The translations under genes and the position numbers were made by a program. DNA of 64,000 bases from a virus. Its lineage: Duplodnaviria > Caudoviricetes. Numbering within the stretch: the first letter of the stretch is position 1; the number at the start of each line of letters is the position of its first letter. The stretch covers positions 24,461 through 88,460 of the IMG/VR virus record IMGVR_UViG_3300005805_000060; one strand, written 5' to 3'. This document shows positions 3,793-29,071 of the stretch, one piece after another. The notes beneath the pieces were generated by a model. That model searched no databases, had not been told where the DNA came from, and saw nothing but the letters and a program-made list of their open reading frames with translations.

Positions 3793-3821
3793 ACTATAGA
3801 GTAGATAAGGTAAAAAGTCAA
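3793..3821 (-). promoter_or_regulatory. Sigma70-type promoter, probably leaderless
   Basis: TTGACT-N17-TATAGT, ending 6 nt before the ATG at 3786. Confidence 0.7.
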
Positions 3822-4666
3822 GTAGTCATCCAGTCTAGCCGTTCGTGTGTAAACGGATAGTGTGCGTCTTTGTAATAGGCCTTGCGCTTGGTCAAGTGAC
3901 GTTTGGCAAATTTACAGGTGCTGGTCACATCCCAGATCTGCACATAATCTTTGTCTTCAGCTTTGCGAATGCCACGACCGATGCTCTGAATAACACGCAC
4001 AAAGCTCTTGCCAGGCTCCACCAGCACAAGATTAAAAATACGGGGAATGTTAATGCCCACTGCTGCAACACCGTAGGTGGCCACAATGATCTTGTCTGTC
4101 GCTTCCGCCACTTGGTCATAGTGATCCTGCCTTTCTAGAGACTTGGTAGCGCCGGATATGAATACTGCTCGGTCGCCCAGGCGCTCTACCAAGGCCTGTC
4201 CCGCAGCCACACGATCTACCAAGACCAGGGTATTGCCGGTCTCGTTCACGCGCTGTATCAGCTGAGCCATGGTGTCCAGTCTACCAGATTCTTCCAAGAG
4301 GTATTTAAGCTCACTTTGATAGTTCGAGAATTCTACTGGATCTACCAGCTGTACCACGTTCACGTGACACTGAGCCAAAACTCCCCGATCTTGCAGTTCG
4401 GCAGCGGCCAGGCGATGTATCACGGGGCCCAGGCTCACATGTATGGCCTGGAACTCAAAATCTTCCTTGGGTATGGTACCAGTGAGCCCCCAGCGAACAG
4501 GCACTTGCGACATCACTCCCGTGAGCAGAGTCTTGAGAGCATCGGCTTTGGCCATGTGACAATTGGATACTACTGCACCATTGACAACGTAATTGTGATC
4601 CTCTGCCACATGCAGATTGAACACCTCAATTGGTTTTTCAATCTCGGTTCTTTTTACCAGCTTCAT
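3818..4666 (-). CDS. uvsW: UvsW helicase part 3: IntC-2 (35 aa) plus helicase C-terminal extein
   Basis: MKLVKR...HNYVVNGAVVSN|CHMAK is followed by SF2 motifs GLTGT, ATYGVAAVGINIP and QSIGRGIR. Confidence 0.93.
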   Translation of the reverse strand: MKLVKRTEIEKPIEVFNLHVAEDHNYVVNGAVVSNCHMAKADALKTLLTGVMSQVPVRWGLTGTIPKEDFEFQAIHVSLGPVIHRLAAAELQDRGVLAQCHVNVVQLVDPVEFSNYQSELKYLLEESGRLDTMAQLIQRVNETGNTLVLVDRVAAGQALVERLGDRAVFISGATKSLERQDHYDQVAEATDKIIVATYGVAAVGINIPRIFNLVLVEPGKSFVRVIQSIGRGIRKAEDKDYVQIWDVTSTCKFAKRHLTKRKAYYKDAHYPFTHERLDWMTT

Positions 4667-5865
4667 ATATTTTCCTTATTTTGCGAGCAGTGCTAGCATC
4701 AAATCTGGTATAATCACAAGGCTCCGGATGATTACATAACCAGGTCTGATCAACCAAATTGAGTTGAAATCCGTTTAGCTGGGACCAGTCCCTCAATGCT
4801 TTTATTTTGGCATCAAATTTTGAACCACAGCATAATTCCTTGGGCTTTATCTCTGCTACCGTTTTGTTTTCATAGTCAACAAAGTCTACAATATAAACCT
4901 TGTTGGCTCCTTCAAATTGATATTCAATCCTGAGTTTTTCATAACACGCTGTTGGTACGTGATATTGATACAGTGTCTCCCAACTTGATCTATATCTAAT
5001 TCCATCCAATGTAGATTGCCAGTGTGTATTTCTGTTATTGGAATTTGGAGTGAATGTTCCCTCAAGTATTCGGGATTGCATGAGCCGTGATCGGTACTTT
5101 TTGTCTTTGTCTGACATAGATTTGCCGTACATTCCATTGCCTGCTCCTGAGTTTTTTCTGGCAATCGCATCTTTCACCGACTGTGGTCGAGGGCCAAGAG
5201 ATCCAATGGCCTGACCTTGGGTGCCTGCGTTCCATGATCGGCCGGTGTTGAGATTTTTTCTAATTTTTGAACCATGCTTAATCTGGCACACTCGCCCCCC
5301 AGCTGCTGATAGTAATGATTTGATTTCTTTCTCAGTACAAGTGCCGGCCAATAATGAATCTATGTTAGATACCCATTGATGAGTTCTTGAATTCATAACA
5401 CGTTTTTTGAACTTAGTAAAATCATTGCCCGATAACCTGTGTCCGGTAGATAAGACAAGAAACCCAAGACCAAACTCTATTACCCTTGTTACCTGTCCAA
5501 ATTCTAATAGACGACTGTTCAAACGTTCAATCCATTGCGCATAACTGATTTTCATAAATACCTCTGCTTTAGTCAAGCGTATTTATGATTTCGTGCTGAT
5601 CTGTGAGTTCGTCGGCACGGCACCATCCCAGATTAGTAAAAAATTTGTGGTTTCCGGTTACTTCAACTTGCATACCATTATCAAATTCTAACCGATACAT
5701 TCTTTCTGTCAGCGACGTGGTCAAGTTACAATGCTGTTTGACTATCACATCTTCCTTAAACTTTTTGGTTTTTTCGCAGTAATTGATTACGCGGTTACCG
5801 GCCTGCAGATCACGGATTGGTACATACCCGTCAGGAGTCAGCACCGGAGTATCACCCGCAAAACA
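4562..5865 (-). mobile_element. Split-intein/endonuclease cassette in UvsW Walker B (DE|CH)
   Basis: IntN CFAGDT...VTGNH (5865-5572, 98 aa), then an endonuclease ORF, then IntC ending SN (4666-4562). AT-richer than its flanks. Confidence 0.9.
4638..5555 (-). CDS. Free-standing homing endonuclease, PD-(D/E)XK TnsA-N-like with NUMOD3-like basic segment
   Basis: YRSSWE...YEKLRIEY...YIVDF...AEIKP, plus NSGAGNGMYGKSMS. The likely start is ATG 5555, after a GAGG SD. Confidence 0.8.
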   Translation of the reverse strand: MKISYAQWIERLNSRLLEFGQVTRVIEFGLGFLVLSTGHRLSGNDFTKFKKRVMNSRTHQWVSNIDSLLAGTCTEKEIKSLLSAAGGRVCQIKHGSKIRKNLNTGRSWNAGTQGQAIGSLGPRPQSVKDAIARKNSGAGNGMYGKSMSDKDKKYRSRLMQSRILEGTFTPNSNNRNTHWQSTLDGIRYRSSWETLYQYHVPTACYEKLRIEYQFEGANKVYIVDFVDYENKTVAEIKPKELCCGSKFDAKIKALRDWSQLNGFQLNLVDQTWLCNHPEPCDYTRFDASTARKIRKIYEAGKKNRD

Positions 5866-6549
5866 TTCATCAACTATGACGCAGACCACATCTTTCAGGA
5901 ATTCCTGGATGGTGCAATCGGCATCTCCATCGCGGCCGGCCTTGAGCAGCACATTGAGACTCTGCCAGGTACAAATGGTGTGTTGGCATCCCCACTCCTT
6001 GCGATCTCCAAAATACACGCCCACATCTAGACCCATGTTCACATAGTCTCGTTCGGTCTGAGTGACCAGACTCTTGTTGGGTACAATCACGATGCTTCGC
6101 CCATACGGTGTCACACGATCACTCAAGGCCGCAGTCATGATGGTGTTGTGGTGGATCAACCCATTGGCATCTACGTACAAGTGAGGGGCATCAATGGCTA
6201 TATCAAAACAGTCTTGATTATCCATGTGAGATATCTCTGTTACTGTTATTTTACCATTGAGGTGATCAACTGTTGATCCAACAGATAAATCTCCTGCAAA
6301 AATATCCCTGCCGTATTGTTGGAGGATATGTTGTTTTGCGACACGTATGGAATAATCGGTGTCAAAAGTCAGATTAACCATTGGTAAATCAAACTTTTTT
6401 ATAAGATGACTTACCTTTGCTTCCTTGTTTGGTGTTGGGACGGAGATTGCTAGCTCGCCAATATCTAATTCAACATTGTCTGACAGATCAGTTGATTTAA
6501 ATTCTTCAACGTATGCTGCAAGTTTACCAATCGATAATTTTACTTTCAT
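5569..6549 (-). CDS. uvsW: UvsW helicase part 2: IntC-1 (135 aa), 93-aa extein, IntN-2 (98 aa)
   Basis: ...LIHHN|TIMTAAL...IVPNKSLVTQ...VIVDE|CFAGDT.... The ATG at 6549 overlaps the upstream stop (ATGA). Confidence 0.93.
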   Translation of the reverse strand: MKVKLSIGKLAAYVEEFKSTDLSDNVELDIGELAISVPTPNKEAKVSHLIKKFDLPMVNLTFDTDYSIRVAKQHILQQYGRDIFAGDLSVGSTVDHLNGKITVTEISHMDNQDCFDIAIDAPHLYVDANGLIHHNTIMTAALSDRVTPYGRSIVIVPNKSLVTQTERDYVNMGLDVGVYFGDRKEWGCQHTICTWQSLNVLLKAGRDGDADCTIQEFLKDVVCVIVDECFAGDTPVLTPDGYVPIRDLQAGNRVINYCEKTKKFKEDVIVKQHCNLTTSLTERMYRLEFDNGMQVEVTGNHKFFTNLGWCRADELTDQHEIINTLD

Positions 6550-7647
6550 TTGATAAAATCCTTGCATTGTTTCACAGTGTTTTCGGGATCCAGAGTATAT
6601 TCGTGTTCCCAGATCACCAACACTTGATACCCGTTGTCTTGCAAATCTTTGACTTTTTTGGCATCATGATCCCAGATGTCGGCCACTGTCTTTTTCCTCA
6701 CCTGGTGTGATCCAGCATAAAATTTTGGGTTTCCGTGCCAGTAGTCGCCATAGTATTCTATGATCTTTTTACCATATAAAAAGTCAACACGGTGTACTTT
6801 TTTCTTTCCTCGAACGGTTTTTTCATTGGGGCCATAATAGCCAACTCCTAGATTTTCAAATAGTTCAAGGGATCTTTTGCTGCGATTAGCCACCATTCTC
6901 TTGTTACCATCTGAATTTAGCCATCGCTCGATTCGTTGATTGAATAGGTCTTCACCAGCGGCCCCATATTTTCTTTTATAAAACTCAATCCCATTGGTGG
7001 TTTGGATCTCTCTCACTTTGTTCGCGGCCTCCTCCGGTGTATGACCTTGCCTAATCCAATACTCGTGAGATCTAGCGGAGAATCCCCGAGAACCTTTCTT
7101 TGATGCCGGGGATCTAGACGATCTCTCTCGTTGAACCATCAAGACTTTTTCTAAAGCCTGAGTCTCAGAAAACCCTTGGTTGGTCCAAAAGTTGATCGTG
7201 TTCGGAAACCCTTTGCTCTTTTCTTGATTGGCCAACATCATTGCCAACTGAGTCTGGCTGGCAGTAAACATGCACTCTAGTTTACTTGCTTTCATCAGGT
7301 TAGTACCATCTTTAGAACATTTACACATGAGTCGAGCCAAGAAATTTCCGCGCCATATTCCAAGAGACAATTTGGTTCCGCACTTGTAACAGGTGCGGGT
7401 GCCTATTTCTAATCCTGATCTTATGAAATGTCGACTGGCATAAACTGGTGCATCCACAAAGTCGATTAGATTCCATTTGTTGATGTTGTTTAGAGTGCAT
7501 AATCGCAACCAACTTTTTTTAGCAAACTTGGTTGTTATTTCTTGTAACGTCATTACCCTGCTCCTGTTGTAATTTATTTATGATAAATTTACCAAAAGAA
7601 GAGTTTTCGTCAATCTCTAGACACAACTCAGTATCCCCTGCTAGGCA
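6145..7647 (-). mobile_element. Atypically split intein/endonuclease cassette in UvsW Walker A (GK|T)
   Basis: IntN CLAGDT... (42 aa, 7647-7522), then an endonuclease ORF, then IntC ending HHN (6549-6145). AT-richer than its flanks. Confidence 0.9.
6546..7553 (-). CDS. Free-standing homing endonuclease, Vsr/DUF559-like PD-(D/E)XK
   Basis: C-terminal VDFLYGKKIIEYYGDYWH...D..K...GYQVLVIWEHE. Internal repeats FWTNQGFSETQA and YWIRQGHTPEEA. AGGAG SD. Confidence 0.8.
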   Translation of the reverse strand: MTLQEITTKFAKKSWLRLCTLNNINKWNLIDFVDAPVYASRHFIRSGLEIGTRTCYKCGTKLSLGIWRGNFLARLMCKCSKDGTNLMKASKLECMFTASQTQLAMMLANQEKSKGFPNTINFWTNQGFSETQALEKVLMVQRERSSRSPASKKGSRGFSARSHEYWIRQGHTPEEAANKVREIQTTNGIEFYKRKYGAAGEDLFNQRIERWLNSDGNKRMVANRSKRSLELFENLGVGYYGPNEKTVRGKKKVHRVDFLYGKKIIEYYGDYWHGNPKFYAGSHQVRKKTVADIWDHDAKKVKDLQDNGYQVLVIWEHEYTLDPENTVKQCKDFIK

Positions 7648-8091
7648 CTTGCCCGCGCCGGTGGCAATCTCCTGAAGACTCTGTAGATTGGTCAAGAAGT
7701 TGTTGATGACCACAACTTGATAGTCGCGCAGCATTATGGGCTCGCCGGCCTGGGGATGTCCTTGGGGCCATACCCGATCTGCAAAGCTGCCTTCATGCAC
7801 TGGTTCTAGGGCAATGCGTGAGCTGTAGGTACGCTGATCATCAAGATCAATGTCGTAGTCAAATTCCTCTAGCACAGGCAATATTTCTGGCAAGAGATTG
7901 GTGTAACTGCTACCGCCCAACTGAAAAAAGCTCACACATCCATCCCAACGTCCTAGACGCACTGCTGGCAGATAGCGGGCATATGGCACCTGATACTTGA
8001 ACTTCTTTACCAGAGCTCGACGAGCATCAAGGTCGAGTCCTTCAATCTTGCAGTTGACTTCGTCACGAATTACTATAGTGGCTTTTTTCAT
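7519..8091 (-). CDS. uvsW: UvsW helicase part 1: N-extein (148 aa) plus IntN-1
   Basis: GRWDG, LRDYQ (Q motif) and ATGAGK, followed by CLAGDT and a stop. Confidence 0.93.
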   Translation of the reverse strand: MKKATIVIRDEVNCKIEGLDLDARRALVKKFKYQVPYARYLPAVRLGRWDGCVSFFQLGGSSYTNLLPEILPVLEEFDYDIDLDDQRTYSSRIALEPVHEGSFADRVWPQGHPQAGEPIMLRDYQVVVINNFLTNLQSLQEIATGAGKCLAGDTELCLEIDENSSFGKFIINKLQQEQGNDVTRNNNQVC

Positions 8092-26114: not shown

Positions 26115-28542
<2,428 letters not shown>

Positions 28543-29071
28543 ATAGAGCAAGGATATACTCATACCCCGGCCTGTGGTCTCTGTTGTGGTCTGGCTCACT
28601 ATGCGGCTACCGTTATCAAATTCCAGGCTGCCCTTGTTGTAACTGGTGGCGCCGGCCCGGATATGATCGGGACAAAACTCATAGGCATAGCGTATGCGTT
28701 GCATGATTTCTTGGGCACCGGTATACTTGTGCGCGGCGATCAAGATGGTGCTGTCAGGCACAAACATGGCATACCAGAGCAGGTAACCTGCAGCTGATGT
28801 TGACTTACCACTCTGTCTGGGCATGAGACTGATGCTGTAGCGATAGCCGTGATAGGTATTGATCAGACGTTTTTGGTATTCATATGGGTGATACAGCATG
28901 CGGCCACGTGTGGGATGCTGTATCATGAAAAAATTGTCCATGAAGTACATGGGACCTGTCACGGGGTCCGCACACTTTATGAACTCCTCTACCTCTTGAT
29001 CAGTGAAGTGTTCTCGTCGATGCGGACTTTTGACTAGAGCTGTTTCTAATTGATTGCGGACCATGCAGTAT

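Follow-up and report, generated by a model that had tools for sequence, protein, structure and literature searches.

A UvsW-like helicase gene of an environmental phage interrupted at two sites by predicted split inteins and endonuclease genes

Fractured genes, as described by Dassa et al. in 2009, consist of the N-terminal part of a host protein fused to the N-terminal half of a split intein (IntN), a free-standing endonuclease open reading frame (ORF), and the C-terminal intein half (IntC) fused to the remainder of the host protein, all on one strand. The genes described in this form encode gp41, IMPDH, DnaE, NrdA, NrdJ, ligase and terminase (e.g. gp41-1, NrdJ-1, IMPDH-1, NrdA-2 and TerL), and the list includes neither UvsW nor any gene fractured twice (PMC2677866). 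The Vsr-like endonuclease family was first described in fractured genes (PMC2677866; PMC3239194), and the enclosure of a promoter in a hairpin is a known arrangement for fractured-gene endonucleases and for Aeh1 mobE (PMC2677866). A related group comprises the atypically split inteins AceL-TerL, GOS-TerL, VidaL and PolB16 OarG (Thiel 2014; PMC10189870; PDB 6VGV), and joining three segments with two orthogonal split inteins is established practice in protein engineering (e.g. PMC7090010, PMC12707363). Here we describe a locus in the last 64 kb (64,000 nt, hereafter the window) of the 88,460-bp IMG/VR viral record IMGVR_UViG_3300005805_000060, whose completeness is estimated at 25%. Five closely packed ORFs, all on the minus strand at positions 3818-8091, represent a UvsW-like helicase in three parts and two endonuclease genes. 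We consider it highly probable that this helicase gene has been doubly invaded by inteins, each interrupted by an endonuclease gene, and that two predicted class 1 trans-splicing reactions restore a helicase of 488 amino acids (aa).

Anatomy of the helicase locus

A preliminary annotation made without database searches (the sequence-only reading) had proposed the order part 1, Vsr-like endonuclease, part 2, TnsA-like endonuclease, part 3. We confirmed this order, with all five minus-strand ORFs (p1, e1, p2, e2 and p3) where it had placed them (Table 1). The three helicase polypeptides have masses of 21.5, 36.7 and 31.7 kDa, and their exteins (the host-protein segments flanking the inteins) sum to 148+93+247 = 488 aa, or 54.9 kDa. 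When joined, the exteins are colinear, and gapless at both junctions, with intact helicases of 494-508 aa from Phosso, Vibrio 2.275.O and 121Q, an alignment that agrees with the 488-aa product proposed earlier and with the restoration in it of GAGKT (motif I, Walker A) and DECH (motif II). The predicted junction peptides are ATGAGK/TIMTAAL and VIVDE/CHMAK, where the slash marks the new bond.

The closest intact relatives of the helicase occur in jumbo phages, namely Sinorhizobium phage Phosso, Agrobacterium phage Atu_ph07, Vibrio phage 2.275.O and the E. coli 121Q group. Intact orthologs are annotated as UvsW-like and adjoin UvsY and RecA-like genes; T4 UvsW (2OCA, E 1e-16) was the top solved relative of the C-extein, and p1 matched DNA-helicase PHROGs. 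As the N-extein alone gave no match in Pfam and PDB searches, 'UvsW-like' is the safe name for the protein. A megablast search of the locus against deposited phages gave no match.

The genes of the locus are tightly interlocked. The first 4 nt of p1 are shared with the end of the upstream gene, the e1 start codon (ATG 7553) sits within the tail of the IntN-1 coding sequence with AGGAG ahead of it, the stop of e1 and the start of p2 share ATGA at 6546-6549, and the p3 start (ATG 4666) falls 29 nt inside the 3′ end of e2. The p2 ORF is open from 6567; we chose ATG 6549 because of the ATGA overlap and because homologs show the same start, which gives a protein of 326 aa, not 332, and shortens IntC-1 to 135 aa from the 141 aa first proposed. 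For e2, which is open from 5576, the start was taken at ATG 5555, 13 nt past the p2 stop and with AGAGG ahead, so that the protein has 305 aa rather than 312. With a GC content of 0.396, the intein parts are poorer in GC than the exteins (0.515), as are e1 (0.42) and e2 (0.40), which agrees with inserted foreign DNA.

Table 1. Positions in the window of the helicase locus, its control elements and the fractured terminase gene
Feature	Positions	Strand	Description
p1	7519-8091	minus	190 aa: N-extein, 148 aa (7648-8091), ends ATGAGK (Walker A GAGK); IntN-1, 42 aa (7522-7647), starts CLAGDTEL, Cys1 = C149
e1	6546-7553	minus	335 aa, free-standing Vsr-like, predicted homing endonuclease
p2	5569-6549	minus	326 aa from ATG 6549: IntC-1, 135 aa (6145-6549), ends HHN; middle extein, 93 aa (5866-6144), Thr+1, TIMTAAL to VIVDE; IntN-2, 98 aa (5572-5865), starts CFAGDTPVL, Cys1, block B TGNH
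e2	4638-5555	minus	305 aa from ATG 5555, free-standing, predicted NUMOD3 + TnsA-like PD-(D/E)xK endonuclease
p3	3818-4666	minus	282 aa: IntC-2, 35 aa (4562-4666), ends VVSN; C-extein, 247 aa (3821-4561), starts CHMAK, Cys+1-His of DECH; Helicase_C domain
e2 control region	5540-5590	minus	CATAAATA at 5580-5587 pairs with GTATTTATG, which contains the e2 ATG
Putative e1 element CATAAATA	7575-7582	minus	21 nt upstream of e1 ATG, within IntN-1 coding sequence
CATAAATA copies	1241, 5580, 7575, 34518, 41073, 41569	minus	
CATAAATA copies	51524, 52943	plus	
TerL N piece	28423-29064	minus	Ends SLLY/CLDGETTT, short IntN
TerL-site endonuclease	27461-28426	minus	321 aa, Vsr-like 'SAWHANP' motif; TATAAATA 4 nt before ATG
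TerL C piece	26115-27533	minus	IntC ending ITKN/CDEFAFV

Inteins, endonucleases and control elements

The suggestion that the two sites carry inteins of different geometry was upheld by the profile and fold comparisons. At site 1 (GAGK/T), the intein is split after a strand-helix unit, leaving a short IntN-1 (CLAGDTELCLEIDENSSFGKFIINKLQQEQGNDVTRNNNQVC) and a long IntC-1, and can be classed on sequence grounds as an atypically split intein. The IntC-1 region of a profile built from 33 middle pieces matched the atypically split VidaL intein (E 3e-11) and, more weakly, CatC. In an alignment of eight p1 pieces C149 was invariant and an IntN-1 core of about 25-30 aa was conserved; because IntN-1 measures only 25-29 aa in three relatives with the same split (L021, L022 and L025), we take the remainder of its 42 aa to be the part overlapped by e1. 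The catalytic residues of intein 1 (Cys1, block B His and HHN/T) were invariant among homologs, and across the 33 middle pieces H139, H140, N141, T142, D233, E234, C235, N306 and H307 did not vary. Block B reads AxxH in all members, with Ala replacing Thr, and VidaL has the same replacement.

Some relatives carry a contiguous mini-intein of 164-171 aa at site 1 (P0002, P0013, P0019, L014, L023 and L037). The model of the L023 mini-intein is a HINT domain (predicted local distance difference test score, pLDDT, 92.8; predicted template modelling score 0.86), with template modelling (TM) scores of 0.82 against VidaL, the nearest solved structure, and 0.73 against the RadA intein. Its sole low-confidence block, residues 31-40, corresponds to the split point of the window's intein 1. 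Intein 1 thus combines Cys1, the block B His, a terminal His-Asn and Thr+1 with a HINT fold taken from the contiguous relative's model, as predicted for a class 1 intein. We also observed that a different reading frame of the linker DNA in the L023 mini-intein (L023:1690-1740) encodes MMLQEIIKNYPSESW, which corresponds to the first 15 residues of e1 and matches the conserved e1 N-terminus MMLQEI..KKxSW. Either the 5′ end of e1 may have been built on intein sequence, or L023 may be a precise-deletion (re-fusion) derivative of a fractured allele.

Intein 2 (site 2, DE/CH) has the appearance of a classical split at the endonuclease-insertion position, with halves of 98 and 35 aa. IntN-2 matched Pfam Intein_splicing (PF14890) at 42.7 bits (cut-off 35.8), and the IntN-2 part of the 33-piece profile matched the DnaX, DnaB, gp41-1 and NrdJ-1 inteins. 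Cys1 (C235), T/S-x-N-H and N/C were invariant, the terminal Asn and Cys+1 being so in 24 IntC-2 relatives; with T-G-N-H as its TxxH motif, intein 2 also has the residues of a class 1 intein. The penultimate residue is Ser in the window; the environmental phages have Ser, Ala or Lys at this position, and Salmonella phage S16 and Proteus phage PM2 have His.

The two endonucleases belong to different types, as the sequence-only reading had it. The e1 product combines a Cys-rich N-terminal region and repeated helical modules with a nuclease of the Vsr fold at its C-terminus. The profile built from e1 together with seven homologs matched E. coli Vsr (1VSR, 1CW0 and 1ODG; E 0.003) and I-Bth0305I (3R3P; E 0.03); the Vsr-matching stretch is the C-terminal 80 residues, with D257, E266, H273 and D297 invariant, and the single-protein Pfam match was a weak one to MTES_1575/DUF559. 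In the e2 family, the TnsA-like endonuclease N-terminal domain PF08722 was found in 12 of 14 members (best E 6e-9) and NUMOD3 in 8 of 14. The assignment of e2 as TnsA-like rests on this family because the window's own copy falls under the Pfam cut-off. Residues E193, D224 and E235 were invariant, as was K237 among the 12 environmental members, a pattern of the PD-(D/E)xK type. The three best Foldseek matches of the e2 AlphaFold2 model (pLDDT 81) were all TnsA (including 1t0f and 1f1z; probability 0.94-0.99), with low TM scores of 0.28-0.32 since the C-terminal domain alone aligns. The e2 product also matched phrog_22417 and phrog_15427. Single-sequence searches of PDB with e1 and with e2 returned nothing useful, and the e2 profile had no match among PDB sequences. 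Overall, the comparisons support a Vsr-like, predicted homing endonuclease for e1 and a NUMOD3/TnsA-like, predicted nuclease for e2, the latter adding a TnsA-like type to the endonucleases of fractured genes.

The motif CATAAATA is five-fold enriched in the window (nine copies against 1.7 expected, a count reached in none of 100 shuffles). Eight of the nine copies, and both copies of TATAAATA, stand 4-24 nt ahead of the start of a same-strand ORF that encodes 160 aa or more; the remaining copy is the e2 start region read on the opposite strand. It is likely that CATAAATA is the T4-type late-promoter -10 element of this phage group, with C at the first position where T4 has T. The copy upstream of e2 forms one arm of a hairpin (-12.2 kcal/mol, z -3.2, equalled by 1 of 200 shuffles) that also encloses the AGAGG ribosome-binding site. 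The window's copy stands 24 nt before the e2 ATG. All 12 environmental e2 loci examined have (C/T)ATAAATA ahead of this start codon, at a spacing of 24 nt in nine of them, and late expression of e2 would be predicted. The region upstream of e1 has no significant hairpin (z -0.97). The CATAAATA copy in that region is seen in the window only, its relatives carrying AATAAATA, and we do not claim a late promoter for e1.

Elsewhere in the window, the large terminase gene is also fractured (26115-29064, minus strand), as seen at the level of its ORFs. With the helicase pairs, the TerL pair brings the number of split-intein pairs in this phage to three.

Allele states, mobility and selection among relatives

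The five-gene layout was found in contigs from three Joint Genome Institute (JGI) samples. Among the best 120 clusters (90% identity) of a search with p2, 35 cover 97% of p2, with lengths of 323-340 aa, and represent the same IntC-extein-IntN piece down to 50% identity. Others among the clusters have forms of about 338 aa (exteins 1 and 2 plus IntN-2, site 2 only), about 473 aa (IntC-1 plus exteins 2 and 3, site 1 only) and 502-510 aa (extein 1, contiguous intein 1, extein 2 and IntN-2).

We assigned allele states by tblastn to 82 complete loci from genome contexts and the IMG/VR scan; the loci are the 80 best of at least 596 matches, so the frequencies that follow are not population estimates. 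Sixty of the 82 loci were intein-free, 11 were split at site 2 only and two at site 1 only, and both sites were split in five (the window, L008, L011, L017 and L021). The remaining states were represented by one locus each: contiguous intein 1 with split intein 2, split intein 1 with contiguous intein 2, contiguous intein 1 only, and contiguous intein 2 only. The survey that the sequence-only reading had suggested thus recovered empty, singly fractured and doubly fractured alleles, and this set provides direct comparative evidence for the steps of the gene-breaking model of Dassa et al. Split alleles that lack an endonuclease gene occur at site 2; in L011, L017, L026 and L032, e2 has been lost save for its 3′ end (the last 20-90 codons), which survives because the next helicase piece has its ribosome-binding site and start there. 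In L012, a 340-aa gene (L012:3982-5004) overlaps the start of a site-2-only helicase by 4 nt and is not e1-like by tblastn.

Two of the loci split at site 2 belong to viable, cultured T4-like phages, Salmonella phage S16 (L015; NC_020416 104626-107352; gp114 / gp114.1 / gp115) and Proteus phage PM2 (L016), whose uvsW genes are fractured at DE/CH. The helicase halves are annotated there as separate DNA helicases and the e2-type nuclease between them as a 'hypothetical protein'; PHROGs 16259, 22417 and 9690 correspond to pieces of this type. The fractured arrangement accounts for such misannotated 'DNA helicase / hypothetical protein / DNA helicase' triplets in cultured phages, e.g. S16 and PM2.

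An extein tree of the 82 loci, built with FastTree only and containing some long branches that are unreliable, gave minimum numbers of state changes of at least 9 for intein 1 and at least 12 for intein 2. The window grouped in a trio with two intein-free alleles (99% support, 86% identity). A second clade (100% support) of near-identical helicases included an allele fractured at both sites (L008), one split at both but lacking e2 (L017), one with site 1 only (L013) and an empty one (L051). The occurrence of near-identical helicases in different states implies that the cassettes are mobile. The exteins of L008 and L013 are 96-99% identical, compared with 68% for IntN-1, 59% for e1 and 71% for IntC-1; conversely, L008 and L017 share a near-identical site-1 cassette (synonymous divergence, dS, 0.03-0.05) in exteins that differ at dS 0.15-0.54. 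The history of the cassettes is therefore decoupled from that of the host gene.

Comparisons of the window with its relatives were mostly saturated in dS, and closer pairs among the relatives were informative for the ratio of nonsynonymous to synonymous divergence (omega). Where dS was unsaturated, omega was 0.06-0.08 for IntN-2, 0.06 for IntC-2, 0.17 for IntN-1, 0.17 for e1 and 0.18 for e2, and extein values in close pairs were 0.01-0.05. Purifying selection thus acts on the intein parts and endonucleases where it is measurable. Selfish intein/endonuclease cassettes can, on this evidence, fracture one enzyme twice at essential motifs while the phage keeps the gene under selection, which would imply that natural trans-splicing at the two sites is efficient and mutually orthogonal.

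Proposed mechanism, alternatives and comparison with known systems

We propose that the superfamily 2 (SF2) helicase gene of an environmental jumbo-type phage was invaded twice, between Lys and Thr of Walker A and between Glu and Cys of motif II, and that each intein coding sequence was then broken by a free-standing homing endonuclease gene to give three helicase polypeptides. Parts p1 and p2 would associate by docking of IntN-1, one strand and one helix, with the nearly complete IntC-1, and p2 and p3 through IntN-2 and IntC-2; in each rebuilt HINT domain, an acyl shift at Cys1 and an attack by the +1 residue (Thr or Cys) would be completed when the terminal Asn cyclises, leaving a scarless peptide bond. 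The sequence-only reading had described the two events as sequential, a term we do not retain as nothing orders the two reactions. The two pairs should not be interchangeable, because IntN-1 supplies the first strand-helix unit only and IntC-2 the last 35 residues only, so that a non-cognate pair would lack most of the fold. By the same argument from geometry, p2 should not cyclise, even with the IntC-extein-IntN order used in engineered cyclisation. The e1 and e2 products would act as mobility engines, e2 under its own late-promoter and hairpin control. The 3′ end of each endonuclease gene carries the translation start for the next helicase piece.

Several observations weigh against this proposal. 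Block B of intein 1 has Ala for Thr, though VidaL shares this; intein 2 lacks a penultimate His, with Ser preceding the terminal Asn; the link of e1 to Vsr is weak by E-value (0.003); and the window's e2 scores 17.5 bits against the PF08722 cut-off of 26.5. UvsW is, moreover, non-essential in T4, and a broken helicase might be tolerated for some time. If the helicase were dead or dying, selfish elements could simply have piled up in a dispensable gene, a view with which the 60 intein-free relatives among the 82 loci would agree as well as the dispensability in T4. All five ORFs are intact, however, the exteins are conserved (86% identity to an intein-free relative, and the low omega of close pairs), and doubly fractured alleles turn up repeatedly in lineages that have diverged to as little as 50% identity; we judge such decay to be quite unlikely. 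Only slightly better placed, and still improbable, is a non-covalent assembly in which the intein halves serve as docking clasps and no peptide bond is made, as in the Aeh1 NrdA 'genes in pieces'. Aeh1 NrdA is fractured by an endonuclease and assembles without splicing (PMC3045599; PMC2677866), and the absent penultimate His of intein 2 would fit the same behaviour. Against this, the nucleophiles and terminal Asn of both inteins are invariant at 35-76% identity, which a clasp would not require, and the breaks interrupt Walker A and motif II, the places at which an unbroken covalent chain matters most.

A metagenome-derived viral contig that is about 25% complete could also owe its arrangement to an assembly chimera that joined the intervening ORFs to helicase pieces. 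The same order and overlaps (ATGA, and the p3 start inside the e2 end) nevertheless appear in independent assemblies from several projects, the finished genomes of S16 and PM2 show the layout at site 2, and the recurrence of the five genes in three different JGI samples excludes a chimera; we give this explanation a negligible probability. Double trans-splicing of a UvsW-like helicase remains our preferred reading. With confidence only a little better than even, we further suggest that this is the first natural protein known in which two orthogonal trans-splicing reactions join three polypeptides that are translated separately, and that its relatives record the life cycle of a fracture at two sites independently, from the empty allele through a contiguous mini-intein, endonuclease invasion that splits the intein and endonuclease loss to, possibly, re-fusion. 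An atypical and a classical split intein that have co-evolved in one cell, with the TerL intein as a third, form a candidate set for three-segment ligation.

The locus shares most of its organisation with the fractured genes of Dassa et al. The arrangement that defines those genes is found twice in the window's gene, the host is likewise a phage replication/repair gene, e1 is Vsr-like, the 3′ end of each endonuclease gene overlaps the downstream start (by ATGA for e1/p2 and by 29 nt for e2/p3), a late-promoter hairpin lies over an endonuclease start (at e2), and split alleles without a homing endonuclease gene occur among relatives, comparable with their gp41-7. In contrast to those cases, one gene carries two fractures and the middle piece exists only between two intein halves; the host is uvsW, e2 is NUMOD3/TnsA-like and neither GIY-YIG nor Vsr-like, and coding sequences overlap where theirs are separated by spacers of 27-51 nt. 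Intein 1 resembles the atypically split inteins in being split near its N-terminus, with VidaL as the best solved match by both profile and fold and AxxH in common, whereas its IntN-1 of 42 aa (core about 25-30) is longer than the 15-25 aa of the characterised examples; it is further set apart by its nucleophiles Cys1/Thr+1, its position in the Walker A loop of a UvsW-like helicase and its association with a Vsr-like endonuclease gene. With S16 and PM2 the window shares the DE/CH site, homologous IntN-2 and IntC-2 (51-54% identity) and a homologous e2-type endonuclease; unlike the window, these phages have one fracture, a penultimate His and no (C/T)ATAAATA upstream of e2.

The presence of several inteins in one host protein is a feature shared with the dnaE gene of Trichodesmium erythraeum, which has two cis inteins and one split intein; compared with that gene and with engineered tandem systems, the present case differs in that both inteins are naturally split, giving three natural polypeptides. 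The sequence-only reading had presented the double fracture as novel. In the open literature (subscription papers were not covered) we found no naturally doubly fractured gene and no UvsW with a split intein, the matches being single cases or engineered systems, and to that extent the claim holds; it is tempered by the arrangement being common in metagenomes and by the occurrence of site 2 alone in S16 and PM2. It is well supported that the locus extends the fractured genes of Dassa et al. by a double fracture, two split geometries and a second, TnsA-like endonuclease type, and does not represent a new principle.

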